A stretch of DNA of 64,000 nucleotides, taken from contig OZ253553.1 in NCBI GenBank assembly GCA_965262715.1, forward strand, positions 2,720,001 to 2,784,000, read 5' to 3'. A program made the position numbers and the translations under genes. The notes beneath the pieces were generated by a model. It did no database searches. It saw only the letters and a list, made by a program, of their open reading frames with translations, and was not told the DNA's origin. This document shows positions 5,132-59,944 of this stretch, in pieces. Source of the stretch: Bdellovibrionales bacterium (GTDB lineage Bacteria; Bdellovibrionota; Bdellovibrionia; Bdellovibrionales; JAUICD01). Each line of letters starts with the position of its first letter. The stretch's first letter is position 1.

Positions 5132-5460
5132 TATCACTAAAAATGAACTGGCCTCTGTTTCACTAAAATACCTCTCGCCTCTGGCGACTTTTTGGCATTG
5201 TCCCCAAACGAGCTTACGCTGTTTGGCAAATAGGACAATGCCTAAAAAGCTTGAGGTATTTTAGTAGGAAGAATCTCTTTATTCTCTTATATCATGTTAG
5301 GGAAAATATTGTTGTTTACAAACCAACATGAAGGCTCACACCTTCAGTAAAATGCTGATTGCCTCATTTATCTACATGGGCAATCCTCAAAAAGGCTTGC
5401 CATTCGTTTATTTTTAGTAGGGAGGCTCTCTCTTCGTTTCTTTACACCATGTTAAGGAAA
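5132..5460 (+). repeat. Composite structured repeat (MITE/ERIC-like); inner 148-bp unit at 5158-5305 nested in an outer unit
   Basis: Ends T(T/A)TCACTAAAA...ATGTTA(G/A)GGAAA; homologous composite at 12520-12847. Confidence 0.85.
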
Positions 5461-5721
5461 TTTTCCTTCATCCTGCTTCTACTCAAAATGAATAGAAGAC
5501 AAGCCTCTCGAGGCTAGCCTTTTTGAGAATTGTCCATGAAATAAATCTAGGTACTGATCCGATGTCAAGAATAAGGTTTCCCTAACATTGTGTTAAGAAG
5601 CAAGAATATCCTCCCTACTAAAATGCATCAGGCTTTCTAGGTAGTCAGCTATTTGCTGACGATGTCAATCGTCAGGCTGACTACCAGAAAGTCGCCAGAG
5701 GCGAGATGCATTTTAGTGAAA
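5461..5721 (-). repeat. Inverted copy of the structured repeat (inner unit 5577-5721 plus the 3' part of the outer unit)
   Basis: Reverse complement reads TTTCACTAAAATGCATC...CAAATA...ATGTTAGGGAAA. Confidence 0.8.
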
Positions 5722-6784: not shown

Positions 6785-6830
6785 AGAGATTGTTTTTTAG
6801 AAAAACAAGGAAAAAATCTTTGAAAGCAAT

Positions 6831-6914
6831 GATTTGATATTTTAAGTCAAAGCCTCGAAGTCCTCGGGCTATTGCCCTGCGGAAGATCTCGTCTTTGGCT
6901 TAAAATATCAAATC
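6831..6914. repeat. Long hairpin (22-bp stem) with GTCCTC-hairpin-TGCGGAAGA core; REP-like
   Basis: GATTTGATATTTTAAGTCAAAG...CTTTGGCTTAAAATATCAAATC; core shared with 30960-31036. Confidence 0.7.
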
Positions 6915-6973
6915 TTTTGTTAGCTATAAAGATTTGGTGTGATTTGTAGGGAGAGGAGATAATAAGAGGAAAG

Positions 6974-7067
6974 TTTCCCTAACATGGTGTAAAATAATAA
7001 AGAGTATCTTTTTTTACTCAAAATGAACAGAGGCTCGCCTTGAGAGGCCAGACTATTTTTAGGGATA
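6974..7067 (-). repeat. Short (94 bp) version of the structured repeat
   Basis: Reverse complement reads TATCCCTAAAAATAG...ACCATGTTAGGGAAA. Confidence 0.7.
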
Positions 7068-12519: not shown

Positions 12520-12847
12520 TTTCCCTAAAAATAGACCAGCCTCTGTTTCACTAAAAATGCCTCTTGCCTCTGGCAACTTTCTGGCATTGCCCCCAAACGG
12601 CCCTGCGCCGTTTGGCAAATAAGGCAATGCCTAGAAAGCCTGAAGCATTTTTACTAGAAGGATATCCTCGTTTTTTAACACGATGTTAGGGAAACTGTTA
12701 TTATTTACCAGTCAGCATGAAGACTTACGTCTTCAAGAAAATGCTGATTGCCTCATTTATTTATATGGGCAATCTTCAAAGAAGCTTGCCATCTGTCTAT
12801 TTTTAGGAAGGAGACTCTTTTCGTTTCTTTACGAAATGTTAAGGAAA
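12520..12847 (+). repeat. Composite structured repeat (inner unit 12546-12694); a further partial unit begins at ~12858
   Basis: Homologous to 5132-5460 with compensatory stem changes. Confidence 0.85.
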
Positions 12848-13119
12848 TCGTTGACTAAATCACTAAAAATGCATCTAGCTGTTTTCTGGCAATACGGCAA
12901 GCAGATATGACCATTCAAGTTCAACTTTTTAGCACAATAATCTGATCCAAGCAGTAATGGTATATTTATAATTTTATTCATCATCTTTTGTGGTTTTTGC
13001 AAAAATAACATCATAAAGTTCTATAAAACATAACAAATCTCTTAATGCTAATTTAAAAACTTTAAGTAAATACACCTTATAAAAAACAAATAAAATAAAT
13101 GTCTGAAATCCGGATTCGA

Positions 13120-13201
13120 TGTCCAATTTGTCGGACAATATCTTGTATTTTAAATCTGAAACCTTGTTTATTCCTGTTTTTAGCTTGGCATATATCTTGC
13201 C
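13120..13201 (+). promoter_or_regulatory. Rpn leader: TGTCC-N8-GGACA palindrome plus sigma54-type promoter
   Basis: TGTCCAATTTGTCGGACA and TTGGCATATATCTTGC; the same leader precedes four other Rpn copies. Confidence 0.6.
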
Positions 13202-13243
13202 TGTATTCCTATTAGGTTTTTTCACTTTAGGAGGGCATAAATT

Positions 13244-13378
13244 ATGGATTCAAATGATCAATATAAGTTATTAGACATTGAAGAATTTTTAAAAAAGTCT
13301 CATTTTTTAAAATTAACAAATGATACAGCTCTTAAAGCCCATTTTAAAGGTAATGAAGAGGTTTTAAAGTCCCTTTGA
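13244..13378 (+). pseudogene. 5' fragment of an Rpn (PD-(D/E)XK_2-type) gene
   Basis: MDSNDQYKLLDIEEFLKKSHFLKLTND... matches the start of 33912-34868; stops after 44 aa. Confidence 0.85.
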
Positions 13379-15343: not shown

Positions 15344-18300
15344 TTACTTACGTTTGAAACATATTACTGTTCCACCGCCATTTGAACCTTCACAAAGCCA
15401 TCCGTAATGTGTATCTGTATCTGCAAACGCGCCGTCGTTTGCAGTGCCGGAAGAGCAGGTATTTCTTTGGTTTTCTTGACTCTGGGAGCTGCCACCACTA
15501 CAAGCACCGTGTATTGGTGGTTTCTGTATCTGACAATTTGTAGCAGTAGCACCGCCTTTTGCGCCCATACAGAGCCATGTATAATGTGTATCTGTATCAT
15601 CTATTGCGCCGTCGTCTGGAGTCCCAGAGCTGCAGCCATTTCGTTGGCTGTTATCACAAACTCCTTCGATGATACTTTTTAATCTGGTACAATTTTGATT
15701 TCTACCTCCATGCAAACCTTCACAAACCCATTCATAATAGTAAATATTGTACCCATCTAGAAATGCATTTGCAGTTCCAGAAGAACAACCATTTCTTTGA
15801 TTCTGATCACAAACGCCATCGATAGGTATTAGCTTTTGACAATCTATAGCAGTAGTGCCGAAATTTGCACCTATGCAGTACCATCTATAATGTGTATTTG
15901 TATCTGCAATAACGCCGTCGTTTGCAGTGCCGGAAGAGCAGCTATTTTGTTTACTGTTATCACAAACGCCATGGATAGGCTAGTTTTTGACAATTTTGTG
16001 CTGTAGTGCCGCCATTTGAACCTTCACAGTGCCATGTATAATGTGTATTTGTATCGGCTATTACGGCGTCGTTTGCTCTGCCAGCAGAGCAGCCATTTCG
16101 CTGACTGTTATTACAAACACCGTTTACTGGTGCAGGTTTTGCCTTTTGACAATTTTGTGCTGTAGTGCCGCCGTTTGCACCTACGCAGTACCATCTATAA
16201 TGTGTATTTGTATCTGCAATAGCGTTGTCATTAGCAGTACCAGCAGAGCAGCCATTTTGTTGGTTGTTATCACAAGCACCGTTAATAGATTTTGCCTTTT
16301 GACAATTTTGTGCAGTAGTGCCGCCATTTGCACCTACGCAGTGCCATCTATAATGTGTATTTGTATCGGCTATTGCACCATCGTTTGCAGTGCCCGAAGA
16401 ACAGTCATTTCTTTGAGCATTATTACAAGCACCGTTAATAGATTTTGCCTTTTGACAATTTTGTGTTGTAGTGCCGCCGTTTGCACCTATGCAGTACCAT
16501 CTATAATGTGTATTTGTATCTGTTATAGCTGAGTCATTAGCAGTACCAGCAGAGCAGCCATTTTGTTGGTTGTTATCACAAGCACCGTTAATAGGTTTTG
16601 CCTTTTGACAATTTGTAGCAGTAGTGCCGCCGTTTGCACCTACGCAGTGCCATCTATAATGTGTATTTGTATCTGCAATAGCGTTGTCATTAGCAGTACC
16701 AGCAGAGCAGCCATTTTGTTGGTTGTTATCACAAGCACCGTTAATAGGTTTTGCTTTTTAACAATTTTGTGCAGTAGTGCCGCCGTTCGCACCTACGCAG
16801 TGCCATCTATAATGTGTATTTGTATCGGCTATAACTGAATCATTTGCTGTGCCAGCAGAACAACCATTTTGTTGACTGTTATTACAAACGCCGTTTACTG
16901 GTGCAGATTTTGCTTTTTGACAATTTGTAGCTGTAGTGCCGCCATTTTTACCTACACAGTGCCATGTATAATGAGTATTTGTATCTGCTATTACGTCGTC
17001 ATTTGCAGTTCCAGAAGAACAGCTATTTCTTTGACTGTTATTACAAACGCCGTTTACCGGTGCAGATTTTGCTTTTTGACAATTTGTAGCAGTAGTGCCG
17101 CCATTTTTACCCACACAGTGCCATGTATAATGAGTATTTGTATCTGCTATCGCTGAGTCATTTGCAGTTCCAGAAGAACAACCATTTTGTTGACTGTTAT
17201 TACAAACGCCGTTTACCGGTGCAGATTTTGCTTTTTGACAATTTGTAGCAGTAGTGCCGCCATTTGAACCTACACAATGCCATGTATAATGAGTGCTTGT
17301 ATCTGCTATAGCTGAATCATTTCCTATACCCGAAGAGCAGCTATTTCTTCGACTGTTGTTACAGACGCCATTGACAGGGATAGCTTTTGTACAACTTGCT
17401 GTTGCACCACCATTTGAGCCAACACAATGCCATGTATAATGAGTACTTGTATCAGCTATTGCGCCGTCGTCTGGAGTCCCAGCAGTACAACCATTTCTGA
17501 TGGTGTCATCGCCGCAAACACCATTTATTGGTGCTGCTGTATCAATGGCCATACTGCAGCAACCTGTAGCATCAGTGCCATCGTTGGTACCTAAACACTG
17601 CCACTGATAATGAGTTTCTGAATCATCTATGTCATTTAAAGTACCTTGACTGCAACCATTCTTAACGGAGTTATTACATTCTCCATTTACGATTGAAGAT
17701 GGATTGCGTGTAACACTCTGGCTTAATATAGAATTGTCACAAGTCTGATAACTTAATGGACCAGGTAAAGGTCCGGAAAAATAACAATAACTGCCTCCTG
17801 ATGGACAGTAATTATAATAAAACTGTTCAACTATACCATCTACTGAAGTTTGACTATCTATAGTGGTAGAAGAAGAGGTTGAAGCTTGTATTGCTATAGT
17901 ACTTTTTACACATGATTCACTTGAAGTGATATCTATTACACCATCACTGCAATTTAGTACATCCTCACTGCCACTATCAATTTGAAGTTCACATTGATTC
18001 GCATTTTGAATATTTGTATGTAATGTCCAAGTTCCACCTTCAGGTCTTAAATACTTATAAATGTTATTATTTTCTAACATCACAGCAATTTCTTCATCAT
18101 TATGTTTAATAATTATTGGATTAAAATGAGGTTTAGAATTAGAGCTCACTTGCAAAACTTGTTTTCGATAGGTGAGGCAATCAGAATTGTCAGGATCTTC
18201 TGCAGACACCTCAATAGTAACAGAACCAGTAGATTCATCGGTAAAGTCTAATTCAATACTTTCACTATCATCTTCGTTTGTCTCCTCAGTTGAAGAAGGT

Positions 18301-18911
18301 AATGTGACTTTCCATATAATGTTCGAAAAATCTGTAGCATTCTTTAATTCAAAAGTGGCAGTCTGTCCAACAGTCAAAGAACCGCTTTCAAGAAAGATCT
18401 CTAAGACATCTGTTAATGAGCATTCCTCACCAATCACGAGTTTTTTACTGGCCACAGTTAACAAATCGGAGTTTTTATAAGATGTAGCAAAAATATCATA
18501 ACTTCCAGGTTTTTTAAATTGATATTGATATTCTGGTTCAGTTGTTGTCTCTTCTCCATCAGTAACAATTTCAAAGGCTCTAGTGATTTTCCATTTAAAA
18601 TCTTCAGAATCAGAATGACTATTCATAACCTTTAGTTTCACATCAGTATCAATTAGGAAATGATCTTCTATCGAGATGCTTTCATCTTCTGATGGTAAAT
18701 AAGCAATAATATAACCTTTATCATTAGATACCGTTTGTTCAGAAAACAGGTTAGGAGCTTGACTTACATTTGAACCGCAGTTTTGAAAAGCTAATAACAA
18801 GAAAAGTGAAGCCAATAGAATTATATAAAAAGTATTATTAAAACTTAACAAAAAATGCTTTTTTATGTTTCGTTTTTTTATAACCCTAAAGAATTTCATT
18901 ATTCTTGTCAT
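15344..18911 (-). pseudogene. Large Cys-rich tandem-repeat surface lipoprotein (~15 units of 51-53 aa), broken by a stop at 16758-16760 and a frameshift at ~15981
   Basis: FQNC motif; repeats PxNGxC..NGC.SG..DT.THY.W.C.G.NGG....C continue in frame past the TAA (CAA in sister repeats); a detached extra unit lies at ~15160-15310. Confidence 0.8.
16758..18911 (-). CDS. Intact 717-aa N-terminal portion of the Cys-rich repeat protein
   Basis: ORF track; signal/FQNC motif, beta-rich domains, first 6 repeats. Confidence 0.75.
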   Translation of the reverse strand: MTRIMKFFRVIKKRNIKKHFLLSFNNTFYIILLASLFLLLAFQNCGSNVSQAPNLFSEQTVSNDKGYIIAYLPSEDESISIEDHFLIDTDVKLKVMNSHSDSEDFKWKITRAFEIVTDGEETTTEPEYQYQFKKPGSYDIFATSYKNSDLLTVASKKLVIGEECSLTDVLEIFLESGSLTVGQTATFELKNATDFSNIIWKVTLPSSTEETNEDDSESIELDFTDESTGSVTIEVSAEDPDNSDCLTYRKQVLQVSSNSKPHFNPIIIKHNDEEIAVMLENNNIYKYLRPEGGTWTLHTNIQNANQCELQIDSGSEDVLNCSDGVIDITSSESCVKSTIAIQASTSSSTTIDSQTSVDGIVEQFYYNYCPSGGSYCYFSGPLPGPLSYQTCDNSILSQSVTRNPSSIVNGECNNSVKNGCSQGTLNDIDDSETHYQWQCLGTNDGTDATGCCSMAIDTAAPINGVCGDDTIRNGCTAGTPDDGAIADTSTHYTWHCVGSNGGATASCTKAIPVNGVCNNSRRNSCSSGIGNDSAIADTSTHYTWHCVGSNGGTTATNCQKAKSAPVNGVCNNSQQNGCSSGTANDSAIADTNTHYTWHCVGKNGGTTATNCQKAKSAPVNGVCNNSQRNSCSSGTANDDVIADTNTHYTWHCVGKNGGTTATNCQKAKSAPVNGVCNNSQQNGCSAGTANDSVIADTNTHYRWHCVGANGGTTAQNC

Positions 18912-22405: not shown

Positions 22406-23775
22406 CGAATTACCTCAGAATATGTGTTACCGAGAGTTGGTAATGTAATTTTGATTTTCGGATTGGTTGCCTCACAACCCCTCTCTTATTTATCATTAAA
22501 AATAACCAACAATTTTAATGAATTTAGCAAACAAGGGAGGGTATCATGAGTTACCATACTATCTTAGAATATATCAATGAATTAGCCAAGTACTACTTTG
22601 AAGCTCAGAGAGTTAAAAAGACTCAAATGTTGGATCATGCTACTGAAGTCACCGGACTTCACAGAAAAACTATCATCAGACAACTTAAAATCTCAAAGAG
22701 GAGTCAATTAGCCAATAATAAGAAAAGATGCGGCGCAAAGCAAAAATACCCTACAGAGTTACTTTTACCTCATATTGAATATCTGTGGAAACAAATGGAT
22801 CGGATATCTGCTAGAAGAATGAAAGCTGCTTTGAAAGATTGGCTGCCTTACTACAATGAAAATAATGTGAATGATCAAGTTAGAAGTCTTTTACAAAAGA
22901 TGAGTGTCTCTACCCTAGATCGCTTCTTAAATCTTCTTAGAAAGCGATACAGAAGCTCAAAAAAAGGAATTTCTTCCACATCTCCAGCTACTTACATGAA
23001 AAATAAAGTTCCTATCAATACTTTAGACTCCAGAGTCACTCGACCCGGATACACTCAAGCAGACACTGTAGCTCATTGTGGAGATAGGCTTATTGGTGAA
23101 TTTATGAACTCTATTACTATCACTGACATCTATTCTACATGGACTGAAAATAGAGCTTTATTCACTAAGAAAGCTTTAGAGGTAAGACGCTGTTTTAGTG
23201 ATATTCAAAGGCACTTGCCATTTAAACTTATTGCTATTAATACAGATTCAGGCAGTGAATTTCTTAATAAACCGGTCTTCAATCAATTCAAAAATAATAA
23301 AGTTATCTTTACACGTTCTAGGCCTTATAAGAAGAATGATAACTGCTATGTAGAACAGAAAAACTATACTCATGTCAGAGAGCTTTTTCACTATTATAGG
23401 ATTGAGAATAAGGAACTTAAATCAATAATGAATGACATTTATATCAATTGTTGGAATCCTTATCAAAATTACTTCATGCCTTCTTTTAAGTTAAAAAAGA
23501 AAACTCGAATCGGAGCTAAAATTAAAAAAGAATACGATGAACCAATGACTCCTTATAAAAGATTAATAACATCTTCTCATATATCCGAAAAGCAAAAGGA
23601 AGCTCTCATACAGAAGAAGAAAAAACTCAACCCATTTAAATTAGTTAAAGCTAGAGAAAAAAAACTATCTGAATTCTTTAAACTACTCAACTTATATAAT
23701 AAACAAAGGAAAAATAATGAATAACTTAACTCTTATACAAAAACTCTTGGTAACAATTTATTCTGAGGCAACACG
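22406..23775 (+). mobile_element. Insertion sequence, ISNCY-like DDE/rve type, 1370 bp, TSD TTCC
   Basis: Imperfect TIRs CGAATTACCTCAGAAT / CGTGTTGCCTCAGAAT; TTCC at 22402-22405 and 23776-23779. Confidence 0.9.
22546..23724 (+). CDS. DDE (integrase-core) transposase
   Basis: QADTVAHCG, TDSGSEF and FTRSRPYKKNDNCYVEQKN motifs. Confidence 0.9.
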   Translation: MSYHTILEYINELAKYYFEAQRVKKTQMLDHATEVTGLHRKTIIRQLKISKRSQLANNKKRCGAKQKYPTELLLPHIEYLWKQMDRISARRMKAALKDWLPYYNENNVNDQVRSLLQKMSVSTLDRFLNLLRKRYRSSKKGISSTSPATYMKNKVPINTLDSRVTRPGYTQADTVAHCGDRLIGEFMNSITITDIYSTWTENRALFTKKALEVRRCFSDIQRHLPFKLIAINTDSGSEFLNKPVFNQFKNNKVIFTRSRPYKKNDNCYVEQKNYTHVRELFHYYRIENKELKSIMNDIYINCWNPYQNYFMPSFKLKKKTRIGAKIKKEYDEPMTPYKRLITSSHISEKQKEALIQKKKKLNPFKLVKAREKKLSEFFKLLNLYNKQRKNNE

Positions 23776-24619
23776 TTCCTAAATCATTTAAGTTTAATAA
23801 TCTATACTTATAATTTAAAACATTCTCACCGAAAGCCTTTTTAAGCTCTAAAGACTTAAAGTTCAAGTAATCATGGAAGCTCAAAGGTAAATTCCATCCA
23901 CTTTTACCAGAATAAACCAACACAGGGATCACTATGGATGGAGCTTTACGTTTTCCACTCTTAACATCTTTACTGTCTTTCTCATAAATACTTGCTTGAT
24001 ACTTAAGAAGCTGTAAAAAAATATCCGAGTCATTATAGGATTTATGCTCAAAAAGAAAAATAATTTCTACAATCTCATCTGAATCTTTCATCTTCACTGA
24101 AAAAATCACATCAGCTCTCTGCTCCCTAAACACCTGATCTACAAAAACAGTCACTTTTGACTGTAGAGTCTTCCAATCAAAAAGATCAAATTCTTCAGGA
24201 GTTAAAACCAAACGAAACAAGTCTAAAACATACCGCTCCTTGCTATAAATTTCATAAAACAAATGATTGAAAATATGAAAAACTTCACGTTTTAACTCCT
24301 GTTTGTTTTTTGGAAGCTTTACCTTTTTATACTTAGATCTGACCATCACAAAACCTCTTAACTAGCTATGAACCTTATTAAACATAAAAACCTTAATCAA
24401 ATGAAAACTCCTGCTTGCATCATAATTTAATTTCAAAAATATAAAAAAATACTCATCAAAACCTCTCTAGATAAATCCTTCTGCAACAAGACCTCTGAAA
24501 AGTACAGTTCTTCGAGTCCATATTTCATTAGAAATAAAATGGTAAGGTATTAGTTTTTTAAGATTTTGTTTTGCTTTTTCTAAAAAACCAGTATTCTCTC
24601 TAAAACTCTCATATAAAAT

Positions 24620-25510
24620 CTATCGTTTAGATTTTTCTTGAAGCTTACAAATTTCTTCCTTTGAAAAACCAGTAACTTTAGATATTTTTTCTGCACTCAT
24701 ACCAGTGTTTAGAAGCTTTAATATAACTTCTGCTATCCCTTCCTGCCGTCCTTTTTCTATTCCTTCCTGTTGCCCTTCTCTTCGAGCTAGGTTTTCTGCG
24801 CTAATTCTATCTCTCTCTCTTTTATCAAGTGCATCTAAATATTCTTCTAAAATTTCATCTTGGGATAAGTTCCAAAACTTCTTTCCTGTTTTTGTTGTAT
24901 TTTTTCCTTTCATAGCTTCTCTAAGGTCTTCTAATCTTTTAAGTCCTTCTAATGCGTCCTTAGTAAATTTTGTAACATCAAGAATAATCTGAGTATCGAC
25001 TCCATTTTTTAGCATATTTAAAGCAACATTCTCACGTTCTTTATGTAGTCCTTTTATAACTCCTTCTTCAAATCCTTCTGTGTGAATGAGTTTTTCTCTA
25101 TTGACTCTATTCTTCTTTTTCTTTTCAAGGATATGTAGGTATTCACTTTCAATCTCTTTTTGAGAAATATCCCGGTAGTTCTCTACTTCCCTTGTTATGT
25201 CAATATCTTGACTCTTAAAATTCTTATACAAAATCTGCTGTTTAGCTTTTTCCTTAAATTCATAAATTTTTTCTTTTGAAAAACCAGTGACTTCAGATAT
25301 CCTTTCTATTTCTACACCAGAATCTAGAAACTTTAATATGGCTTCCTCTACTCCTTCCTGTTGTCCTTTCTTAAATCCATCCTCGACACCTACTTTATAA
25401 ACATGTTCTTCGCTACTAACTCTATCTCTTTCCATCTTGTCATAGGCATACAAGTATTCCTCTTCACCTTCTTTTTGGGAAAAATTCCAAAGTTTCTCTG
25501 TTTCTGCCAT
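24620..25510 (-). CDS. Protein made of three fused Rpn C-terminal (RpnS-like) modules, no nuclease domain
   Basis: Three W.xSQ.E..EY..D..ERDR..EG..KG..HTH-like units; own RBS GAGGAG-ACGAT-ATG. Confidence 0.8.
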   Translation of the reverse strand: MAETEKLWNFSQKEGEEEYLYAYDKMERDRVSSEEHVYKVGVEDGFKKGQQEGVEEAILKFLDSGVEIERISEVTGFSKEKIYEFKEKAKQQILYKNFKSQDIDITREVENYRDISQKEIESEYLHILEKKKKNRVNREKLIHTEGFEEGVIKGLHKERENVALNMLKNGVDTQIILDVTKFTKDALEGLKRLEDLREAMKGKNTTKTGKKFWNLSQDEILEEYLDALDKRERDRISAENLARREGQQEGIEKGRQEGIAEVILKLLNTGMSAEKISKVTGFSKEEICKLQEKSKR

Positions 25511-25550
25511 ATCGTCTCCTCAACCCTTAAAGTCCTCATATAAAGTTTAT

Positions 25551-25790
25551 TACTTAGACTTATCTTGAAATTTACAAATTTCTTCCTTTGAAAAACCAGT
25601 AACTTTAGACACTTCTTCTCCACTCATTACAACGCCTTAAAAGTTTCAATATAACTTCCTTTATTCTTTCTTGTTGTCTTTCTTTTTTACCTTTCTTAAT
25701 TCCTTTTTCTATCCATTCTTATCATCTTTCCAGATGTTCTTCTCTGTGAGCTAGATTGTCTGCACTAACCCTCTCTCTTTTAGAGATCCT
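25551..25790 (-). pseudogene. Degenerate RpnS-like module (same at 58091-58330)
   Basis: RERVSADNLAHREE..EKGIKKG..SKVTGFSKEEICKFQ with stops and a frameshift. Confidence 0.7.
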
Positions 25791-25803
25791 ATCTCTTTTG
25801 GAT

Positions 25804-26406
25804 TTATAGATATTTTTTAAGATGTTCTAATTTTTTAAGTCTTTCTAACTCGTCCTTAGTAAATTTTGTAACATCAAGAATAACCGGGGTATCAACTCCA
25901 ATCTTTACCATATTTAAAGTAATGTTCTCACGTTCTTTTTGTAGTCCTTTTATAAATCCTTCTTCAAATCCTTCTTTGCGAATGAGTTTCTCTCTATTGG
26001 CCCTATTCTTCTTTTTCCTTTCGAGAACATACAAGTGTTCACCTTCATCCTCTTCTTGAGAAACATCCCAATAGTTCTCTACTTCCTTTGTTATATCAAT
26101 GTTTTGATTCTTAAAATTCTTATACAAAATCTGTTGTTTAGTTTTTTCATGAAACTTATGAATTTTTTCTTTTGTAAAACCAGTAATTTCAGATACTTTT
26201 TCTATCTCCTCATCAGCATCTAAAAATTTTAATATAACTCCCTCCATTCCTTCTTGTCGTCCTTGCTCAAATCCATCCTCAACACCTTCTTTATAAACAA
26301 ATTCTTCTCTAGTTATTCTATCTCTTTCCATCTTGTCGTAGACAGATAAGTTTTTTTCTTCACCTTCTTTTTGAGAAAAGTCCCAAAAGTTTTCTGCCTT
26401 TGCCAT
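25804..26406 (-). CDS. Two fused RpnS-like modules
   Basis: MAKAENFWDFSQ..; own RBS GAGGAG; paralogue of 24620-25510. Confidence 0.8.
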   Translation of the reverse strand: MAKAENFWDFSQKEGEEKNLSVYDKMERDRITREEFVYKEGVEDGFEQGRQEGMEGVILKFLDADEEIEKVSEITGFTKEKIHKFHEKTKQQILYKNFKNQNIDITKEVENYWDVSQEEDEGEHLYVLERKKKNRANREKLIRKEGFEEGFIKGLQKERENITLNMVKIGVDTPVILDVTKFTKDELERLKKLEHLKKYL

Positions 26407-26445
26407 ATCGTCTCCTCAATCCTTAAGGTTCTTATATAAATTCTA

Positions 26446-27432
26446 TTATTTAGATCTTTCTTGAAACTTACAAATTTCTTCCCTTGAAAAACCGGTAACT
26501 TTAGACACTTCCTCTGCACTCATACCAGTATTTAGAAACTTTAATATAACTTCCGCTATCCCTTCCTGCCGTCCTTTTTCTATCCCTTTTTCTATTCCCT
26601 CCTGTTGTCCTTCTCTGCGGGCTAGGTTTTCTGCGCTAATTCTATCTCTTTCTCTTTTATCAAACGCATCTATATATTCTTGTAAAGCCTCATCTTGGGA
26701 TAAGTTCAAGAGATGTTTTACTGCTTTTGCCATATCTTCTCCTTTATTTTCCAAACTCTTATATTCAGTATCATTCATTTTATATGAATTCTTTAATAAA
26801 TAACACCATGACTCTCTTATATCATACAATTGCTTTACATTTTTATCAAATTTCCCTAACTCTGCTTTTTTCACTAAAAATGAACCAGCCGTCGAGGTGA
26901 GCCTCTCGAGGTGAGCCTCTGGCTGTTTTTGGGCAATGACCCCGACGGCTAATGCCCTCGGCAAATAGGTCATTGCCTCAAAAACCTGTTCATTTTTAGT
27001 AAGAAGATACTCTTCATTTTTTAATAAGATGCTAAGGGAATATTAAAGCCTACATGCATATACCAATGCTCTATCTGTAAAATAAGGTTTTGATACTGTT
27101 TGCATCTCTACATTTACAATCTCTGTTTCCTGGGTACCTGATTGTGTGTTCCTTTTTAAATGCATTCTCAAGTCGAGAACAAATCTTCTACCAGATTCTT
27201 CACCTTTTATAACAGAAGGAGTATCAGGATGAAGATCAGGATCTAAAACGTCTACTTTTATAACTTCTGAATGTTTTGGAAGTGGCAAAAAATGTGTGAG
27301 TAGTGATTTTAAAGCTTCTTCATTGCCTTTAAAATAGGTTTTAAAAGCTGCGTCATTTGTTAATTTTAAAAAATGAGACTTTTTTAAAAATTCTTCAATA
27401 TCTAATAACTGATGTTTATTACTTGAACCCAT
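26446..27432 (-). pseudogene. Rpn (PD-(D/E)XK_2) nuclease with its centre replaced by a structured repeat; internal RpnS-like ORF 26446-26733 is intact
   Basis: Matches intact 33912-34868 on both sides of 26864-27043. Confidence 0.9.
26869..27040 (+). repeat. Structured repeat unit (second copy 59409-59566 lacks a 14-bp internal duplication)
   Basis: ACTAAAAATGAAC/GTTCATTTTTAGT stem and CAAATA bulge as in the other copies. Confidence 0.85.
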
Positions 27433-27473
27433 AATTTACGCCCTCCTAAAATGAAAAATCTAATAGGAATACA

Positions 27474-27570
27474 AGCAAAATACATGCCAAGCTAAAAGCA
27501 GGAATAAACAAGGTTTCAGATTTAAAACATAGAATATTGTCCAACAATTTGGACATCGAATCCGGATTTC
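27474..27570 (-). promoter_or_regulatory. Rpn leader: sigma54-type promoter plus upstream palindromes
   Basis: TTGGCATGTATTTTGCT (GG-N10-GC); TGTCCAA-N4-TTGGACA at 27538-27555; AATCCGGATT. Confidence 0.65.
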
Positions 27571-27731
27571 ATACATCAAAACTAAATTGAAATAAAATAT
27601 TTAAATAAAAAAACTGACGCATTATTTCTTCACATTAATATTATTTAGAGACATCATCTAATAGCTTAAAATAGGTTGTTATATGGAAAGCTATTGTCGT
27701 CAATAAAAGTACTATAAATCGAGGAGTAAAA

Positions 27732-32230: not shown

Positions 32231-33343
32231 TTATTGGCACTTGCTTTGAATTTGCAGGACTTCTTTTTCTGAAAGCCCTGTTGCTTTACTTATGGCTTGT
32301 ATATCCATATCAGTTGTTTTTAGAAGATTTACAGCAACTTTCTGCAATCCTTTCTGCAATCCTTCCTGTAAACCTTTCTGTAATCCTTTCTGTAAACCTT
32401 CCTGCAATCCTTTCTGCAATCCTTTCTGCAATCCTTTCTGCAATCCTTTCTGCAATCCTTTCTGCAATCCTTCCTGTTGAGCTTCTTGCCTTATGCGATC
32501 TCTCATCATTTGTAATGCTGGCATTGTTCTTTTCTCCTCTGATACATTCTTTTCTTCTATCTCTTGTAAAATATTCCAAGTAAAGCTTGGATCACAAAGT
32601 CTCACACAATCAACAGCCCTTTCCATTAAAAAGATACGGTCTTCTTTATTAGCAAGCTTATTGGATAACTTAAACAAATCTCCAATGATCTGCTCATCTA
32701 AGTTCCATACACTTTTTAGTATAAACAAAATCGTCCCAGATAGCAACTCCTTTGAGCTTAATTCCGCTATTCCTAAATCATTTAAGTTTAATAATCTATA
32801 CTTATAATTTAAAACATTCTCACCAAAAGCCTTTTTAAGCTCTAAAGACTTAAAATTCAAATAATCATGGAAACTCAAAGGCAAATTCCATCCACTTTTA
32901 CCAGAGTAAACCAACACAGGGATCACTATGGATGGAGCTTTACGTTTTCCACTCTTAACATCTTTACTGTCTTTCTCGTAAATACTTGTCTGATACTTAA
33001 GAAACTGTAAAAAAATATCTGAGTCATTATAGGATTTATGCTCAAAAAGGAAAATAATTTCTACAATCTCATCTGAATTTTTCATCTTCACTGAAAAAAT
33101 CACATCAGCTCTCTGCTCCCTAAACACTTTATCTACAAAGACAGTCACTTTTGACTGTAGAGTTTTCCAATCAAAAAGATCAAATTCTTCAGGAGTTAAA
33201 ACCAAACGAAACAGGTCTAAGACATACCGCTCTTTGCTATAAACTTCATAAAACAAATGATTGAAAATGTGAAAAACTTCACGTTTCAACTCTTGTTTGT
33301 TTTTTGGAAATTTTGTCTTTTTATACTTAGAGTTTGCCATCAC
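32231..33343 (-). CDS. Rpn/YhgA-like nuclease, intact; internal RpnS-like start at 32524
   Basis: RADVIFSV, LFEHKSY, IPVLVYSG..W motifs; 11 GLQ(K/E) repeats; AGAGG RBS before GTG 33343. Confidence 0.9.
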   Translation of the reverse strand: MMANSKYKKTKFPKNKQELKREVFHIFNHLFYEVYSKERYVLDLFRLVLTPEEFDLFDWKTLQSKVTVFVDKVFREQRADVIFSVKMKNSDEIVEIIFLFEHKSYNDSDIFLQFLKYQTSIYEKDSKDVKSGKRKAPSIVIPVLVYSGKSGWNLPLSFHDYLNFKSLELKKAFGENVLNYKYRLLNLNDLGIAELSSKELLSGTILFILKSVWNLDEQIIGDLFKLSNKLANKEDRIFLMERAVDCVRLCDPSFTWNILQEIEEKNVSEEKRTMPALQMMRDRIRQEAQQEGLQKGLQKGLQKGLQKGLQKGLQEGLQKGLQKGLQEGLQKGLQKVAVNLLKTTDMDIQAISKATGLSEKEVLQIQSKCQ

Positions 33344-33613
33344 AAAACCTCTTAACTGACTATGAACCTTATTAAATGTAAAATCCTTAATCAAATGAAA
33401 ACTTCTACTTGCATCATAACTTAATTTCAAAAATATAAAAAAATACTCATCAAAGCCTCTCTAGATAAATCCTTCTACAACAAGGCCTCTGAAAAGTACA
33501 GTTCTTCGAGTCCATATTTCATTAGAAATGAAATGGTAAGATATTAGTTTTTTAAGACTTTGTTTTGCTTTCTCTAAAAAAACAGTATTCTCTCTAAAAC
33601 TCTCATATAAAAT

Positions 33614-33900
33614 CTATTGTTTAGATTTTTCTTGGAGTTTGAATATTTTTTCTTTTGAGAAACCAGTGATTTCAAGTACTTTTTCTACACTCATATCAGC
33701 ATGTAGAAGCTTTAATAAAATTTTTTCGATTTCTTGCCTTCCTTTTTTGAAGACCTCTTCATGAATTTTGAGGGCTTCTTCACGGACAAAGTTTTCTCTA
33801 CTTAGCCCTATCCCTTTTCTTTCTTATCAATTGCTTCTAAATATTCTCTTAAAACCTCATCTTGAGATAGGTTCCAAAAATGTTTCACTGCTTTTGCCAT
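33614..33900 (-). pseudogene. Frameshifted stand-alone RpnS-like module
   Basis: AAAGGAAAAAGT-ATG MAKAVKHFWNLSQDEVLREY..; length is not a multiple of 3. Confidence 0.75.
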
Positions 33901-33911
33901 ACTTTTTCCTT

Positions 33912-34868
33912 TTATATTTCCCTAAGCTTTTCTAACTCTTCCTTACTCAGTTTTGTAGAATCAAGAATAACTTGAATATCAATCCCATTTTTTAACATAT
34001 TTAAGGCGACTTTCTCTATCCCTTTTTCTATTCCTTTCTGTTGTCCTTCTCTTCGGGCTAGATTTTCTGCGCTAATTCTATCTCTTTCTCTTTTATCAAA
34101 CGCATCTATATATTCTTGTAAAGCCTCATCTTGGGATAAGTTCCAAAGATGTTTCACTGCTTTTGCCATATCTTCTCCTTTATTTTCCAAACTCTTATAT
34201 TCAGTATCATTCATTTTATATGAATTCTTTAATAAATAACACCATGACTCTCTTATATCATACAATTGCTTCACATTTTTATCAAATTTCCCTAATTCTA
34301 TGATAACAAAACATAATCCATTTGACATTAATACATGAGGAGGAGTGATCCGACAAATGTTACAAATATGGTGGTAGTCTTTAACATTTTTAAATTCTTT
34401 TAAATTCTTCGTTATGAAAACTAATGAGTACACGGGAAGTAACTTATCATAATCACTACCTTTTTTTAATTGTTGAGAATAAAGCCTACATGCATATACC
34501 AATGCTCTATCTGTAAAATAAGGTTTTGATACTGTTTGCATCTCTACATTTACAATCTCTGTTTCCTGGGTACCTGATTGTGTGTTCCTTTTTAAATGCA
34601 TTCTCAAGTCGAGAACAAATCTTCTACCAGATTCTTCACCTTTTATAACAGAAGGAGTATCAGGATGAAGATCAGGATCTAAAACGTCTACTTTTATAAC
34701 TTCTGAATGTTTTGGAAGTGGCAAAAAATGTGTGAGTAGTGATTTTAAAGCTTCTTCATTGCCTTTAAAATAGGTTTTAAAAGCTGCGTCATTTGTTAAT
34801 TTTAAAAAATGAGACTTTTTTAAAAATTCCTCAATATCTAATAACTGATGTTGATTACTTGAACCCAT
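33912..34868 (-). CDS. Rpn family PD-(D/E)XK_2 nuclease, intact; internal RpnS-like start at 34169
   Basis: NDAAFK, LDL, NVEMQ, DRALVY, IELGKF motifs. Confidence 0.9.
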   Translation of the reverse strand: MGSSNQHQLLDIEEFLKKSHFLKLTNDAAFKTYFKGNEEALKSLLTHFLPLPKHSEVIKVDVLDPDLHPDTPSVIKGEESGRRFVLDLRMHLKRNTQSGTQETEIVNVEMQTVSKPYFTDRALVYACRLYSQQLKKGSDYDKLLPVYSLVFITKNLKEFKNVKDYHHICNICRITPPHVLMSNGLCFVIIELGKFDKNVKQLYDIRESWCYLLKNSYKMNDTEYKSLENKGEDMAKAVKHLWNLSQDEALQEYIDAFDKRERDRISAENLARREGQQKGIEKGIEKVALNMLKNGIDIQVILDSTKLSKEELEKLREI

Positions 34869-34909
34869 AATTTATGCCCTCCTAAAATGAAAAATCTAAT
34901 AGGAATACA

Positions 34910-35005
34910 AGCAAAATACATGCCAAGCTAAAAGCAGGAATAAACAAAGTTTCAGATTTAAAATACAAGATATTGTCCAACAACTTGGACATCGAATCCG
35001 GACTT
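34910..35005 (-). promoter_or_regulatory. Rpn leader: sigma54-type promoter plus upstream palindromes
   Basis: TTGGCATGTATTTTGCT; TGTCCAACAACTTGGACA at 34974-34991. Confidence 0.65.
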
Positions 35006-35080
35006 CATACATCCAATCATCCAAACACAAATTGTTTATTCGTCTTAGAACTAAAATAGGGAAGAATCAAACATTTATAA

Positions 35081-36840: not shown

Positions 36841-38469
36841 ATGACAAAAGAGCAACCATTAGCAGGTATAGAAAAAGAGCTATGGCAAGCAGCAGATAAG
36901 TTGAGAGCTAACATGGATGCTTCTCAATATAAGGATATTGTTTTGGGGCTTATCTTTCTTAAGTATATTTCTGATAAATTTGATGAGTTTAGGGAAAAAC
37001 TTAAATCTGATCTTACAAATCCTCAACATGAGCACCATTTGCCTGATGCAAGTCAAGATGACATAGAGTTTGAATTAGAAGAGAGAGACTATTATAAGGC
37101 CAACACTATTTTTTGGGTACCTGCCCCTGCTAGATGGCATGGAAATAAAAATACAGAAGTAAAGGGTATTCAAGACAAGGCCAAGCAGTCAGATATTGGT
37201 AAAATCATTGATGATGCTATGGTAGCTATTGAAAGAGAAAATCCTAAATTAAAAAATGTACTTCCTAAAATTTTTACTCAGAGAGGAGTTAATATAAGGC
37301 TTGGAGAACTTATTGATTTGATCTCAAAGATTGGATTTAATAGCTCAGATCATCATGCGAAAGACATCTTAGGTCATGTTTACGAGTATTTTTTAGGACA
37401 ATTTGCTTCTGCTGAAGGCAAAAGAGGAGGACAGTTTTACACACCTAGGAGTGTGGTCAATTTAATTGTTGAATGTTTAGAACCTTATAACGGAAGAGTT
37501 TATGATCCAGCAGTTGGTTCTGGAGGTTTCTTTGTCTCTAGTAAACGGTTTATTGAATCTCATACAGATAAAAAGCATATCAACAAAGCTAAAAGGGACA
37601 TATCACTTTTTGGACAGGAGTCTAATCCTACCACTTGGAGACTTGCAGCTATGAATATGGCTATTCGTGGAATTGAGGTAGATTTAGGCAAACAAAATGC
37701 TGATACTTTTACAAATAATCAACATCTTGATTTAAAAGCTGACTTTGTGATGGCCAATCCTCCTTTCAATATGAGTGATTGGGGAGGGGATCAGCTAACT
37801 GATGATAGAAGGTGGAAATATGGTATGCCTCCCAAAGCGAATGCCAATTTTGCTTGGATTCAGCACATTATCTATCATCTCTCTCCTAGAGGCTATGCAG
37901 GAGTTGTCTTAGCTAATGGTTCAATGTCTTCTAATACGAGCAACGAGGGAGTTATTAGAAAAAATCTCCTTGAGGCTGATATTGTGGATTGTATGATTGC
38001 TTTGCCGGGACAATTATTTTTCAATACGCAAATTCCTGCTTGTATATGGATCATGGCCAAAGACAAGTCGGGGAAAAAGGATGATAGGCGCAGTAGAAAA
38101 AATGAAGTTCTTTTTATTGATGCTAGGAATATGGGGGAGATGATCAGTCGTGTTCAAAGGGCTTTTTCAGATAAAGATATTTTGCAGTTAGCTAGCATTT
38201 ATCATACTTGGCGTAATAAGGATAAGGGATATAGTGATCAGGCGGGGCTTTGTAAATCGGTCACATTAGAGGAGATCAAGTCTCATGATTATGTATTAAC
38301 TCCTGGAAGGTATGTTGGTATAGCGGAGGTCAAAGATGATGGTATTCCTTTTCATAAAAAGATGGAGAAATTGACTGGAGAGTTAAGAGATAGTTTTATT
38401 GAATCTAAAAAGTTAGAAAAGCAAATTAAGAAAAATCTTACAGGTATTGGGTTTAAGATAGATTTATGA
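36841..38469 (+). CDS. hsdM: Type I R-M methyltransferase subunit
   Basis: LWQAADKLR, GGQFYTP, YDPAVGSGGF and ANPPFN motifs. Confidence 0.95.
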   Translation: MTKEQPLAGIEKELWQAADKLRANMDASQYKDIVLGLIFLKYISDKFDEFREKLKSDLTNPQHEHHLPDASQDDIEFELEERDYYKANTIFWVPAPARWHGNKNTEVKGIQDKAKQSDIGKIIDDAMVAIERENPKLKNVLPKIFTQRGVNIRLGELIDLISKIGFNSSDHHAKDILGHVYEYFLGQFASAEGKRGGQFYTPRSVVNLIVECLEPYNGRVYDPAVGSGGFFVSSKRFIESHTDKKHINKAKRDISLFGQESNPTTWRLAAMNMAIRGIEVDLGKQNADTFTNNQHLDLKADFVMANPPFNMSDWGGDQLTDDRRWKYGMPPKANANFAWIQHIIYHLSPRGYAGVVLANGSMSSNTSNEGVIRKNLLEADIVDCMIALPGQLFFNTQIPACIWIMAKDKSGKKDDRRSRKNEVLFIDARNMGEMISRVQRAFSDKDILQLASIYHTWRNKDKGYSDQAGLCKSVTLEEIKSHDYVLTPGRYVGIAEVKDDGIPFHKKMEKLTGELRDSFIESKKLEKQIKKNLTGIGFKIDL

Positions 38470-38858
38470 ACATAACTTCTTTAAAACAATCAGTTCAAGA
38501 TTTAGAAAGAGCGTTAGAAATCTGTTATAAGAATACAGAAAACGGTGTACTTAAGGACGCTTGTATTTACAGATTTAAAAACACTTATGAGATCACTGTT
38601 AGAATGATAAAAAGGTATTTAAAGGAAACTTCAAGCAATCCTTTTGAAATTGAAAAACTAACTTTCAATCAAATGATCAGCAAAGCTTTTGAGGCTTCTA
38701 TTATTAAATTAGAGTTTGAAGATTGGAAAAAATTTAGGGATTGTCGCATAAAAGTTAGTGAAAGTTATCAAGAGGAAGTAGTAGATGAAATTTTAAAAGA
38801 GGTTCCATTTTTTTTAAAAGAAGTTAAGTACCTCATCAGTCGTCTTGACAAAAACTGA
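38466..38858 (+). CDS. HI0074-type HEPN protein lacking the R-X4-H motif
   Basis: DACIYRFKNTYE..W..FRDCRIKVSESY; ATGA overlap with hsdM. Confidence 0.8.
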   Translation: MNITSLKQSVQDLERALEICYKNTENGVLKDACIYRFKNTYEITVRMIKRYLKETSSNPFEIEKLTFNQMISKAFEASIIKLEFEDWKKFRDCRIKVSESYQEEVVDEILKEVPFFLKEVKYLISRLDKN

Positions 38859-38876
38859 AACAGGAGGAACAAAGCA

Positions 38877-39284
38877 ATGAATAAATACGAAAAGTTTCAA
38901 AAAGCTTTAAAGCATTTAGAGCGAAGAAATACAGAATATAAGAACATAGATGAACAGTCTCAATGGATAAGGGAATCTATTATAGAATCTGTTATCCAAA
39001 GGTTTGAAGTTTGTTGTGATTGTTTGTAGAAGGCTTTGAAGGCTTATTTAGAAGAGAATTTAAAAGATTCTAAGATTCCAAATAGCCCTAAACCAATTTT
39101 TGAAATAGTTTGTGAAAAAAACATTTTAAGTGTGCCTAAAGAACAATGGCATAAATATATAGATATGAGAGATGCCACTAGCCATGACTACAATCATCAA
39201 AAAGCTCAAAGAGCAATAGATATAATAGATGGTTTTACTGATGATACCACTGGTCTTTATCAAACAATGACAGGTCAAACATAG
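38877..39284 (+). pseudogene. HI0074-type HEPN protein with an in-frame TAG at 39027
   Basis: ESVIQRFEVC..*KALK..RDATSHDY; AGGAGG RBS. Confidence 0.8.
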
Positions 39285-39292
39285 GAGTTAAA

Positions 39293-39712
39293 ATGCTTAA
39301 TTTATCATCATTAGAGAGTGCTATCAATGAGCTTGAATATTTTTTAAATTCTTATGACTCTAAGGAACATCAAGGAGATCCAAAAATAGTACGTATAGCA
39401 GCTATTAAAGCTTTTGAGTTTACTTATGAGCTAACTTTTAAAATGATGGAGCGTTATTTAAGGGAGAGCGCAGCAAGTGTTGATGATTTTAAAAGCGCAA
39501 CTTTTAAATTAATTATTCGAAAGGCTTATGCAGCCTCTATCACAAGTAAGGCAATTGAAGAATGGGAGGAATTTAGAGAAAATAGGAACAAAACAAGCCA
39601 TACATATAAAGAGAAGATAGCAATAGAAGTTTTTGAAAAGATTCCTGCTTTTTTAGAGGAAGCTCGGTATATATTAAAACAGTTAAAAGAGAGGATAAAA
39701 CATCTTGAGTAA
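39293..39712 (+). CDS. HI0074-type HEPN RNase toxin with intact motif
   Basis: AAIKAFEFTYEL..W..RENRNKTSHTY (R-X4-H). Confidence 0.85.
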   Translation: MLNLSSLESAINELEYFLNSYDSKEHQGDPKIVRIAAIKAFEFTYELTFKMMERYLRESAASVDDFKSATFKLIIRKAYAASITSKAIEEWEEFRENRNKTSHTYKEKIAIEVFEKIPAFLEEARYILKQLKERIKHLE

Positions 39713-41462: not shown

Positions 41463-42502
41463 ATACTCTTGAATATAGATGCCCAATATGGAGTAACTCA
41501 AATGAACAACAAACACTTGATGCTAAGAGTTCATATAATAAAGATAAAAGGTGGTATGAGGTGGATTCACCAAGAGCTGGAGGTAAATATCGCATTTTAT
41601 GTGAAGCTGAGAAGAAGCTTAATCCCTCACTTGGAGATTCAGGTAATACAGATGATATTACACATCAAATAAGTTATGGTTTTAGAGCAAAGCTTACTAC
41701 ATGGCTTATTGAACAAAGAAAACAAGGAGATAAAAGCCCTTTAATTACTGATGAAGTATTAGAACAGATCCATAGTAAAAAAGACATTCCTATACAAGAA
41801 AGAATTAATAATGTTTTAAAATATATCTACGAAAAAAATCAGGAACATAAAAATAAATATTCACACTTTGATGAAATTCCTATAAATGTTGATGAGCTAA
41901 AAGCCTATGCCGAATGTGCCAATAATGATGATTTGCAGATCATACTCGATTATTTGAAACAAAACCAACTTATCAACATAGATGATAATCAACGTATAGA
42001 ACAGTTCTTAGAGATTACTTTGAATGTTAAAGGACTAGAAAGATTAGAATCTCTTGAAACCAATAAAGACAGCAGACAAGCTTTTGTTGCCATGTGGTTT
42101 GATGAAAGCATGAATAATATTTATGATAAAGCCATACAGCCGGCTATTGAAGAATTGGGTTATCAGGCGATGAGGATTGATAAAAAAGAGCATAACAACA
42201 AAATTGATGATGAGATCATAGCAGAAATTAAAAGATCAAAGTTTCTAATTGCTGATTTTTCTTATGGTAAGGATGGCATAAGAGGAGGTGTTTATTACGA
42301 AGCTGGTTTTGCTCACGGCTTAGGTATTCCGGTTATTTTCACTTGCCGTGAAGGAGATGAAAATAAATTACATTTTAACACTCGTCAATTCAAGCATCTT
42401 CTTTGGAAAGATGCAGAAGATTTAAAAAAGCAGCTAAAAGATCATATAGGAGCAACCCTTGGTGATGGCCCATTAAAATCAATAAATTACAAGCCTAAGT
42501 AA
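41459..42502 (+). CDS. Putative defence protein with C-terminal nucleoside 2-deoxyribosyltransferase/TIR-like domain
   Basis: AFVAMWF..RID..IDDEI..IADF..GGVYYEAGFAHGLGIPVIFTC; ATGA overlap with hsdS. Confidence 0.7.
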   Translation: MNTLEYRCPIWSNSNEQQTLDAKSSYNKDKRWYEVDSPRAGGKYRILCEAEKKLNPSLGDSGNTDDITHQISYGFRAKLTTWLIEQRKQGDKSPLITDEVLEQIHSKKDIPIQERINNVLKYIYEKNQEHKNKYSHFDEIPINVDELKAYAECANNDDLQIILDYLKQNQLINIDDNQRIEQFLEITLNVKGLERLESLETNKDSRQAFVAMWFDESMNNIYDKAIQPAIEELGYQAMRIDKKEHNNKIDDEIIAEIKRSKFLIADFSYGKDGIRGGVYYEAGFAHGLGIPVIFTCREGDENKLHFNTRQFKHLLWKDAEDLKKQLKDHIGATLGDGPLKSINYKPK

Positions 42503-42603
42503 AGCGAATTTCTGCTCCTCTTTCATGTAATTAGTTGATTTTATCAGTTCAAAATTTATAAATTAAAAATAATTAAGAGATTCTAAGTTTATATCTGATA
42601 GGA

Positions 42604-48260: not shown

Positions 48261-48321
48261 CAGGTTAGATGAAGCGCGTTTTATGGTGATTGGCGATTTG
48301 TCTTTATACTATAAGGATTGA

Positions 48322-58946: not shown

Positions 58947-59944
58947 ATCGTCTCCTCAATCCTTAAGGTTCTTATATAAATTCTATTATTTAGATCTTTC
59001 TTGAAACTTACAAATTTCTTCCCTTGAAAAACCGGTAACTTTAGACACTTCCTCTGCACTCATACCAGTATTTAGAAACTTTAATATAACTTCCGCTATC
59101 CCTTCCTGCCGTCCTTTTTCTATCCCTTTTTCTATTCCCTCCTGTTGTCCTTCTCTGCGGGCTAGGTTTTCTGCGCTAATTCTATCTCTTTCTCTTTTAT
59201 CAAACGCATCTATATATTCTTGTAAAGCCTCATCTTGGGATAAGTTCAAGAGATGTTTTACTGCTTTTGCCATATCTTCTCCTTTATTTTCCAAACTCTT
59301 ATATTCAGTATCATTCATTTTATATGAATTCTTTAATAAATAACACCATGACTCTCTTATATCATACAATTGCTTTACATTTTTATCAAATTTCCCTAAC
59401 TCTGCTTTTTTCACTAAAAATGAACCAGCCGTCGAGGTGAGCCTCTGGCTGTTTTTGGGCAATGACCCCGACGGCTAATGCCCTCGGCAAATAGGTCATT
59501 GCCTCAAAAACCTGTTCATTTTTAGTAAGAAGATACTCTTCATTTTTTAATAAGATGCTAAGGGAATATTAAAGCCTACATGCATATACCAATGCTCTAT
59601 CTGTAAAATAAGGTTTTGATACTGTTTGCATCTCTACATTTACAATCTCTGTTTTCTGGGTACCTGATTGTGTGTTCCTTTTTAAATGCATTCTCAAGTC
59701 GAGAACAAATCTTCTACCAGATTCTTCACCTTTTATAACAGAAGGAGTATCAGGATGAAGATCAGGATCTAAAACGTCTACTTTTATAACTTCTGAATGT
59801 TTTGGAAGTGGCAAAAAATGTGTGAGTAGTGATTTTAAAGCTTCTTCATTGCCTTTAAAATAGGTTTTAAAAGCTGCGTCATTTGTTAATTTTAAAAAAT
59901 GAGACTTTTTTAAAAATTCTTCAATATCTAATAACTGATGTTTA

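Follow-up and report, generated by a model that had tools for sequence, protein, structure and literature searches.

What kind of element scatters folded, non-coding DNA over a bacterial chromosome, and by what route does it move? The question is raised by a 64,000-nucleotide stretch of a Bdellovibrionales genome (contig OZ253553.1, positions 2,720,001 to 2,784,000 of the forward strand; hereafter the window), which holds several copies of a non-coding element of about 145 bases. To our knowledge many bacterial repeats, RPE, bcr1-like repeats and heptamer cassettes among them, have no known mover. The present family is young and abundant and resides in two closed, complete chromosomes, so its junctions can be read. 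Below, G000 is the genome that contains the window, G001 is a congener, and G002, G003 and G004 are other genomes of the order.

The element is most easily described on the strand that reads TTTCAC...GGAAA, referred to here as the written strand. Along it lie the basal helix P1 (13-14 bp), the side hairpin P2 (5 bp), the stem P3 (6 bp), a single bulged base and the stem P4 (10 bp), with an A-rich bulge and an apical hairpin (P5) beyond P4 and a 40-base tail that terminates in ATGTTARGGAAA. P1, P2 and P3 form a three-way junction, and the 5' box pairs within the fold with a third, internal copy of the box. The side hairpin expands in exact 14-nt steps (6, 20, 34, 48, 62). The end of the tail had been described as an imperfect inverted repeat of the 5' end; the two ends do match at 10 of 12 bases, forming an imperfect 12-bp terminal inverted repeat, but two of the window copies, D and E, terminate differently, in ATGCTAAGGGAA.

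All five copies reported in the first-pass annotation of this DNA are present at the positions and on the strands it gave. Copies A (5158..5305, plus strand; fold, score 147.5 bits), B (5577..5721, minus strand; fold, 161.4 bits) and C (12546..12694, plus strand; fold, 129.7 bits) are full elements, copy A running from P1 through P2, P3, the bulge, P4 and P5 to the tail and its terminal box. Both A and C are nested in older copies. Copy A was joined into the side-hairpin loop of its host, whose 5' module (a P1 arm and half of P2) aligns at 5132..5157 and whose T-rich linker and 3' remainder occupy 5306..5460, all on the plus strand (5342-5460 scores 40.7 bits). The host of copy C, also on the plus strand, consists of a 5' module aligned at 12520..12545 and a linker with 3' remainder at 12695..12847 (match 12774-12847). 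An internally deleted copy on the minus strand (6974..7067, 45.7 bits) has lost P3-P5 and retained both ends. Copy D (26869..27040, plus strand), with two 14-nt expansions in the side hairpin, lies inside an Rpn-type (PD-(D/E)XK) gene. Copy E (59409..59566, plus strand), with one such expansion, belongs with D to a single segmental duplication, in which 24.6-27.3 kb is repeated at 57.1-59.9 kb. The paralogous site is empty at 34300..34479, within an intact Rpn-type gene (33912-34868), and it is these 180 bases whose place D and E have taken.

Several other features of the window deserve mention. A second structured repeat, a long AT-rich hairpin of about -55 kcal/mol, lies at 6789-6965; it has 66 matches in G000 (38 of at least 100 bases) and none in G001, is often found between copies of the main element, and has a terminal box resembling the main element's 5' box. 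Rpn-type genes (Transposase_31, PDDEXK_2) and their fragments, with 12-base coding repeats, occur at 23726-27432, 32231-34868, 50118-51071 and 54704-59462, and a 290-base repeat spans the start of PDDEXK_2 genes together with the sequence upstream of it, in either orientation, at 13082-13374, 27302-27576, 34738-35012, 51095-51218 and 61395-61534. The Rpn nucleases were considered as a mover and rejected, as 16 copies are also present in G003, a genome without the element. A 717-aa ORF at 16758-18911 is built of 153-159-base repeats and has no Pfam match; there are about ten such genes in G000. The window also contains a KAP NTPase at 27732 and a defence island at 36841-54645, with type I restriction genes, nucleotidyltransferase pairs and a 1,418-aa HamA-helicase fusion.

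The folding z-scores of the window copies range from -5.6 to -9.0, and none of 200 shuffles was equally good. The geometry originally proposed, with 10-bp arms, a 6-bp stem, a single bulged T, CAAATA and C(C/T)T, is found in five of the five, with one mismatch in the 10-bp stem of copy C. The accompanying idea that the fold rather than the sequence is conserved was half right: the fold is kept, but the sequence is also 70-80% identical among window copies. Across the family, two supposedly constant motifs proved variable. CAAATA occurs in only 65 of 190 parsed G000 copies and lies outside the ten commonest hexamers in G001, while the C(C/T)T linker appears as CCT, TCC, CTT or TCT across the parsed copies.

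Pairing was followed in an alignment of 54 copies from a set of 58 distinct ones of canonical length; the four excluded were two whose ends were cut, an aberrant copy and a chimeric one. In this diverse set 96.5% of 2,040 cells pair, compared with 33-45% in slid controls; both sides have changed at 29 of 38 pairs, and double Watson-Crick swaps fill 457 cells against 18 with one-sided change. The earlier claim that paired strands change together is borne out in this larger alignment. Helix modules are also shuffled between copies, and at an orthologous site P4-P5 was exchanged in situ with pairing preserved. In quasi-palindromes, arm-to-arm copying gives double swaps without wobble intermediates, so that hairpin gene conversion, named at the outset as a weakness of any functional claim, could by itself yield such double changes. 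However, it would erase the one-base bulge between P3 and P4, and this bulge is retained in 187 of 190 parsed copies in G000 and 602 of 602 in G001 (789 of 792) while both stems change; the bulged base is T on the written strand in 186 and 576 of them, respectively. The conserved bulge therefore argues for selection, and the fold is likely under it.

Conservation of the bulge while both stems change also supports the suggestion that a folded single strand is read by its geometry, but the strand in question is probably the opposite one, and the evidence on RNA or DNA points both ways. The folded strand is probably the complement of the strand first written, and the bulge there is an A. Among copies with a single mismatch in P3 or P4, counted as distinct events, A.C exceeds G.T on the written strand by 35:16 (p = 0.011) and 30:12 (p = 0.008), and the A.C variants alone have spread to many copies. 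Since an A.C mismatch in the written orientation corresponds to G.T or G.U on the complement, the complement is favoured as the folded strand; deamination of an exposed strand would indicate the same one. The complementary-strand apical loop reads G-N-N-A in 508 of 607 G001 copies (333 GNRA and 175 GNYA) and in 92 of 197 in G000, where bulges confuse the parsing. GNRA is a stable RNA loop and cGNNAg a stable DNA loop. The GNRA majority suits RNA; the share of GNYA loops, the low frequency of wobble pairs (1-3% of cells, with G.U scarce on either strand) and the excess of double over one-sided changes (457 against 18) lean towards DNA without deciding the matter.

A family of hundreds of copies was confirmed by genome-wide scans. 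A first HMM gave 451 matches in G000, of which 433 (96%) lie outside long ORFs and 18 inside. With a second HMM there were 454 matches in G000, covering 2.0% of the genome, 277 of them near full; in G001 there were 1,332, covering 5.9%, 740 of them near full. Both strands carry scattered copies, and where copies cluster they mostly follow one another head to tail. A covariance model, with 21 candidates scored per genome, was positive in 3 of 151 genomes of the order and gave no family match in the other 148. The apparent third host, G004, was set aside: its matches lie on contigs C1, C4 and C11, apparently mis-binned, whose proteins have 89-93% median identity to G000 compared with 45% for the main contigs, and the family is therefore known from one genus. 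These three contigs are syntenic to G000, one carries the S10-spc ribosomal operon, and their source is apparently a close congener. A pattern scan returned at least 80 loci, and among the matches listed all fell in one Bdellovibrionales MAG record, a result uninformative on other phyla. Viral contigs gave no pattern matches, and none of four metagenome pattern matches was scored by the element HMM. Rfam 15 produced no hit at the gathering score in the window, and none over the copies at E <= 1 or E <= 10. No description of the repeat family was found in the open-access article texts searched. The family is real and probably undescribed.

That the element moves is plain from its flanks. Eight identical 145-mers sit at eight G001 loci with differing 5' flanks, and sites empty in G000 carry copies in congener contigs. 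An empty paralogous site was found for 8 of 96 isolated copies in G000 and 13 of 127 in G001, or 21 events, some of which, like the junction counts, share history, so that not all are independent. At 19 of the 21, between 0 and 343 target bases were lost on insertion; the other two show target duplications, of 25 and 41 bases. Extra bases at the junctions number 0-12 on the 5' side (median 3) and 0-46 on the 3' side (median 16). There is no constant target duplication at these sites, and neither end is base-precise. The trinucleotide (C/T)TG commonly precedes the 5' end, yet it is found among the extra bases, and so is not simply a target. Such junctions rule out the marks that a transposase usually leaves, and they point to a strand selected for its structure being pasted in by repair-type joining.

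The element favours hairpin-forming sites: in older copies the side-hairpin loop and the terminal box, and elsewhere tRNA ends and CRISPR repeats. In the two genomes, 6 of 38 and 4 of 37 tRNAs have an element within 8 bases. Copies lie in or beside two types of CRISPR repeat (G000:C1:476744, 482122, 490461 and 2607210), and one of these arrays has what we take to be a Cas12a-like repeat. Tandem arrays reach 16 and 8 units; they consist of the element and a 6-300-base spacer, as at G000:C1:558527-562298, and one of them re-copies part of a tRNA-Arg.

The 3' flank co-travels with the element over variable lengths. In G001, 222 copies bear a heptamer-rich 3' flank, and 25 extend into its source, a four-helix-bundle gene. 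Many tails begin with an inverted copy (at least 5 nt) of the element end, a fold-back seen at 35% of 886 junctions in G001 (5.7% in shuffled sequence) and 19% of 310 in G000 (10.6% shuffled). Tails track the downstream target (AMI 0.47) rather than the body (0.10), a pattern that fits young bodies overwriting old copies. By eye the 3' tail had suggested a degenerate target duplication, but a permutation test spoke against it: over 17 events the 3' extras were no closer to the target than chance (score 11.4, with 11.5 for permuted pairs; p = 0.53). Nor was there support for adenine-specific, DGR-like mutagenesis in the tail, where C columns are the most variable.

Orientation gives few clues. 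There is no bias with respect to the replication strand (76:76 and 135:146, with GC skew partly scrambled) or the direction of transcription (48:36 and 84:74), and no terminator role was seen for the element. G001 has almost no GC skew. The polarity of fragments, judged by HMM from 5' and 3' fragments with unique flanks, is inconsistent between the genomes (33:75 in G000, 96:69 in G001).

The cognate RAYT/HUH or DDE transposase with the same ends that had been anticipated was not found in G000 or G001. The only Y1 enzyme in G000 is one IS200 TnpA, whose 3.4-kb locus contains no element copy, and the same genome has two group II intron RTs and one St85-type retron RT. The retron RT, a 590-aa protein fused to an effector domain (G000:C1:2650522-2652294), adjoins a tRNA-Asp that has an element copy at its 3' end. 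In G001, the more active genome and the one with the youngest copies, no RT was found by RVT_1 (Pfam), phmmer or a motif scan, and no Y1/RAYT by Pfam or a custom profile (best E 0.03); G004 has no RVT_1 match. Neither G000 nor G001 has a match to Ku, Y-family polymerase, AEP primase, IS110, MOBP relaxase or PolX, and Y2 gave no match in either, but its positive control was also silent. G000 holds many IS30, IS1634, IS5, IS256 and IS3-like genes; over 16 gene families in the two genomes, 0-2 copies per family are bracketed by element boxes. Markers put the completeness of the two genomes at 90-93%, and an enzyme could therefore reside on a replicon that is missing.

One PolA and MutS are present in all five genomes, as is ExoVII, and SbcD_C has a match in G000 and none in G001. 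RecJ was found in G002 and, with two models, not in G000, G001, G003 or G004. Its loss is not sufficient, because G003 and G004 also appear to lack it and no copies are seen on the chromosomes that are their own. In Acinetobacter, loss of recJ and exoX is described as raising single-strand patch mutations about 30-fold (10.1101/2024.07.02.601687). Plant organellar PolI-type enzymes are described as joining ends by microhomology, which Klenow does poorly (PMC6451138), and by analogy a role for host PolA in joining is possible.

The nearest gene association involves an Avd-like four-helix-bundle family (PF05635/TIGR02436), with 34 matches in G000, 33 in G001 and 24 in G004. In G001 an element lies within 200 bases downstream of 25 of 28 four-helix-bundle C-termini, as against 96 of 1,548 other genes, in an orientation that puts the complementary strand in the mRNA. 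The link shrinks to 1 of 26 in G000 and 0 of 5 viewed loci in G004. The gene family itself is present in 58 of 151 genomes, some of which have 10-18 copies yet lack the element. As the mover itself the protein was accordingly judged a weak candidate; it is a lead, and its partnership with the element is putative. In the leader of these genes a hairpin masks the ribosome site, and heptamer arrays flank the genes (for example G000:C1:157286-157582, 304069-304365 and 660282-660578); their codons 66-69 are a hot spot of element insertion. No description of TIGR02436 elements was found in the open-access article texts searched.

How, then, does the family compare with known systems? No membership in a described MITE, REP or Rfam family was found. 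Like the REPIN/REP/BIME repeats and their RAYT (TnpA-REP) enzymes, it comprises hundreds of intergenic hairpin repeats with mutual insertion and tandem arrays, and those systems, as outlined in the sources, also use a required bulge and a single-strand substrate (PMC3116915, PMC8266576). Unlike REPINs, the element is one asymmetric three-way junction with a tail rather than a REP doublet, its junctions are ragged with target loss, and the genome with the youngest copies has no RAYT that we could find. The REP analogy drawn initially fails on this point and on the position of GTAG: GTAG/GTRG stands directly 5' of the hairpin in 0 of 226 copies in G000 and 0 of 682 in G001, on either strand. The attC analogy fares no better. 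The boxes RYYYAAC ... GTTRRRY are absent from the same 226 and 682 copies, copies are dispersed on both strands, and the two tyrosine recombinases of G000 are best matched by Xer-type profiles, with scores of 75 and 52 bits where the integron cut-off is 265 bits.

Other parallels are partial. In SPDIR of Acinetobacter baylyi, single-stranded DNA is described as replacing a chromosomal stretch without a dedicated enzyme, a process favoured without RecJ (10.1101/2024.07.02.601687); it is there a rare mutation involving arbitrary fragments and extended microhomologies, whereas here one conserved 145-base fold is involved hundreds of times. At unique sites there is no sign of the extended microhomology on which SPDIR depends, because the 3' extras match the target at chance level, and homology joining was observed solely inside resident copies. 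With MITEs and the Rickettsia palindromic elements (ERIC, Correia, RPE) the element shares a length of about 150 bases, a lack of coding capacity, a stable stem-loop, lineage restriction and terminal inverted similarity (PMC10969869). It differs in having no fixed duplication, no IS with matching ends and inner helices that covary around fixed bulges, and it is mostly intergenic, in contrast to the in-frame positions in genes described in that source (PMC10969869). DGR spacer RNA with Avd offers a 140-150-nt structured strand 3' of an Avd-like gene, which is the arrangement in G001 only, and a conserved unpaired A (PMC6182149), but there is no DGR RT, G000 does not show the link, and hundreds of copies of the element lie scattered over the genome.

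Several rival explanations have to be weighed against repair-type pasting. The element could be a SINE-like retroposon, an account we think rather unlikely, in which a trans-acting RT would start at the 3' end of a processed complementary-strand RNA and copy it at a break in the target, with variable truncation of the far end; in one variant the Avd-like protein could be an RNA-binding helper. One near-fixed and one variable end, the carry-over of 3' flank, the fact that a single strand bears the GNRA majority, the bulged A and the wobble tilt, the four-helix-bundle link in G001 and the three RTs of G000 all speak for it, and the 144-nt spacer downstream of avd and TR in Bordetella DGRs is described as priming from an internal A (PMC6182149). 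Yet the holder of the youngest copies has no RT that was found, the four-helix-bundle link does not extend to G000 or G004 and its genes are common without the element, G.U pairs are rare on both strands, and a bias in transcription direction is lacking. Improbable too is a REPIN-like element whose mover would be an unrecognised single-strand transposase of the HUH type, reading the bulge and end boxes, with read-through at one end. Bulged stems, self-targeting, clusters and tandem arrays do resemble REP/REPIN biology as described (PMC8266576, PMC3116915), (C/T)TG usually stands before the 5' end, and arrays of 16 and 8 units occur; but the junctions are imprecise at either end, G001 has no Y1, the sole Y1 of G000 is an IS200 enzyme with no copy nearby, there is no MOBP relaxase, and neither GTRG 5' of the stem on either strand nor a replichore bias is seen.

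Accounts that need no mobility of its own do not do well either. We give a low probability to a host-useful RNA element (acting in stability, processing or as a protein-binding site) or a neutral palindrome arm-matched by template switching, spread in either case by ordinary recombination. It would suit the position of 433 of 451 matches outside long ORFs, the double swaps without wobble intermediates expected of arm-to-arm copying, and the exchange of inner modules in place at orthologous copies. Against it stand insertions into genes and CRISPR repeats, presence or absence between congeners and the indifference to transcription; a host-functional structured RNA, one form of the structured RNA first proposed, is unlikely on the same grounds, with congeners differing in occupied sites and genes and CRISPR repeats disrupted. 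For a neutral palindrome, template switching would erase the bulge kept in nearly every parsed copy, and placement at unrelated sites is not achieved by ordinary recombination. Finally, a classical MITE moved by a resident DDE transposase through the 12-bp terminal inverted repeat is largely refuted and very improbable: the ends match and IS genes abound, but the 21 empty sites show no constant target duplication, the 16 gene families have next to no bracketed copies, and a MITE has no need of the inner fold.

With somewhat less than even confidence, we therefore favour a selfish folded single strand, probably of DNA, that is pasted by repair-type joining. The complementary strand would fold as single-stranded DNA into the bulged three-way junction and would spread when host repair patches it into breaks or gaps, with no transposase involved. 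We infer that the released fragment has limits set by the fold, with a few bases past P1 on one side and from none to tens, sometimes more, on the other. One end would be joined near TTTC; the other may be joined at a variable place or be resolved by homology in a resident copy, and such resolution would overwrite old bodies and shuffle helices. The short and long variable overhangs could be what remains on the complement in a host with a 3'-acting but no RecJ-type 5'-acting exonuclease; without RecJ, the folded strand would keep its long 5' tail. Pure repair, however, leaves the invariant boxes and bulge unexplained, and the even distribution over replication strands and the lack of target similarity in the 3' extras also count against this reading. 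The invariant bulge and end boxes imply a putative binding protein.

A bolder version, possible but doubtful, is that no mobile enzyme is needed at all: the fold would survive nucleases, host repair would capture the strand at breaks, and in a lineage that has lost RecJ the element would have come to fill up to 6% of a chromosome, overwriting older copies and probably driving the scrambling of gene order. More generally, the element is a non-autonomous structured repeat, and there is a fair chance that its mode of spread is new. If repair-type pasting is true, it would be a testable way for repeats to spread when no transposase is involved, and it would supply a natural blueprint for single-strand inserts that resist nucleases. 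For the organisms themselves, gene order is heavily scrambled between G000 and G001, and the spread of the element may explain why 817 of about 1,435 shared genes have no conserved neighbour.
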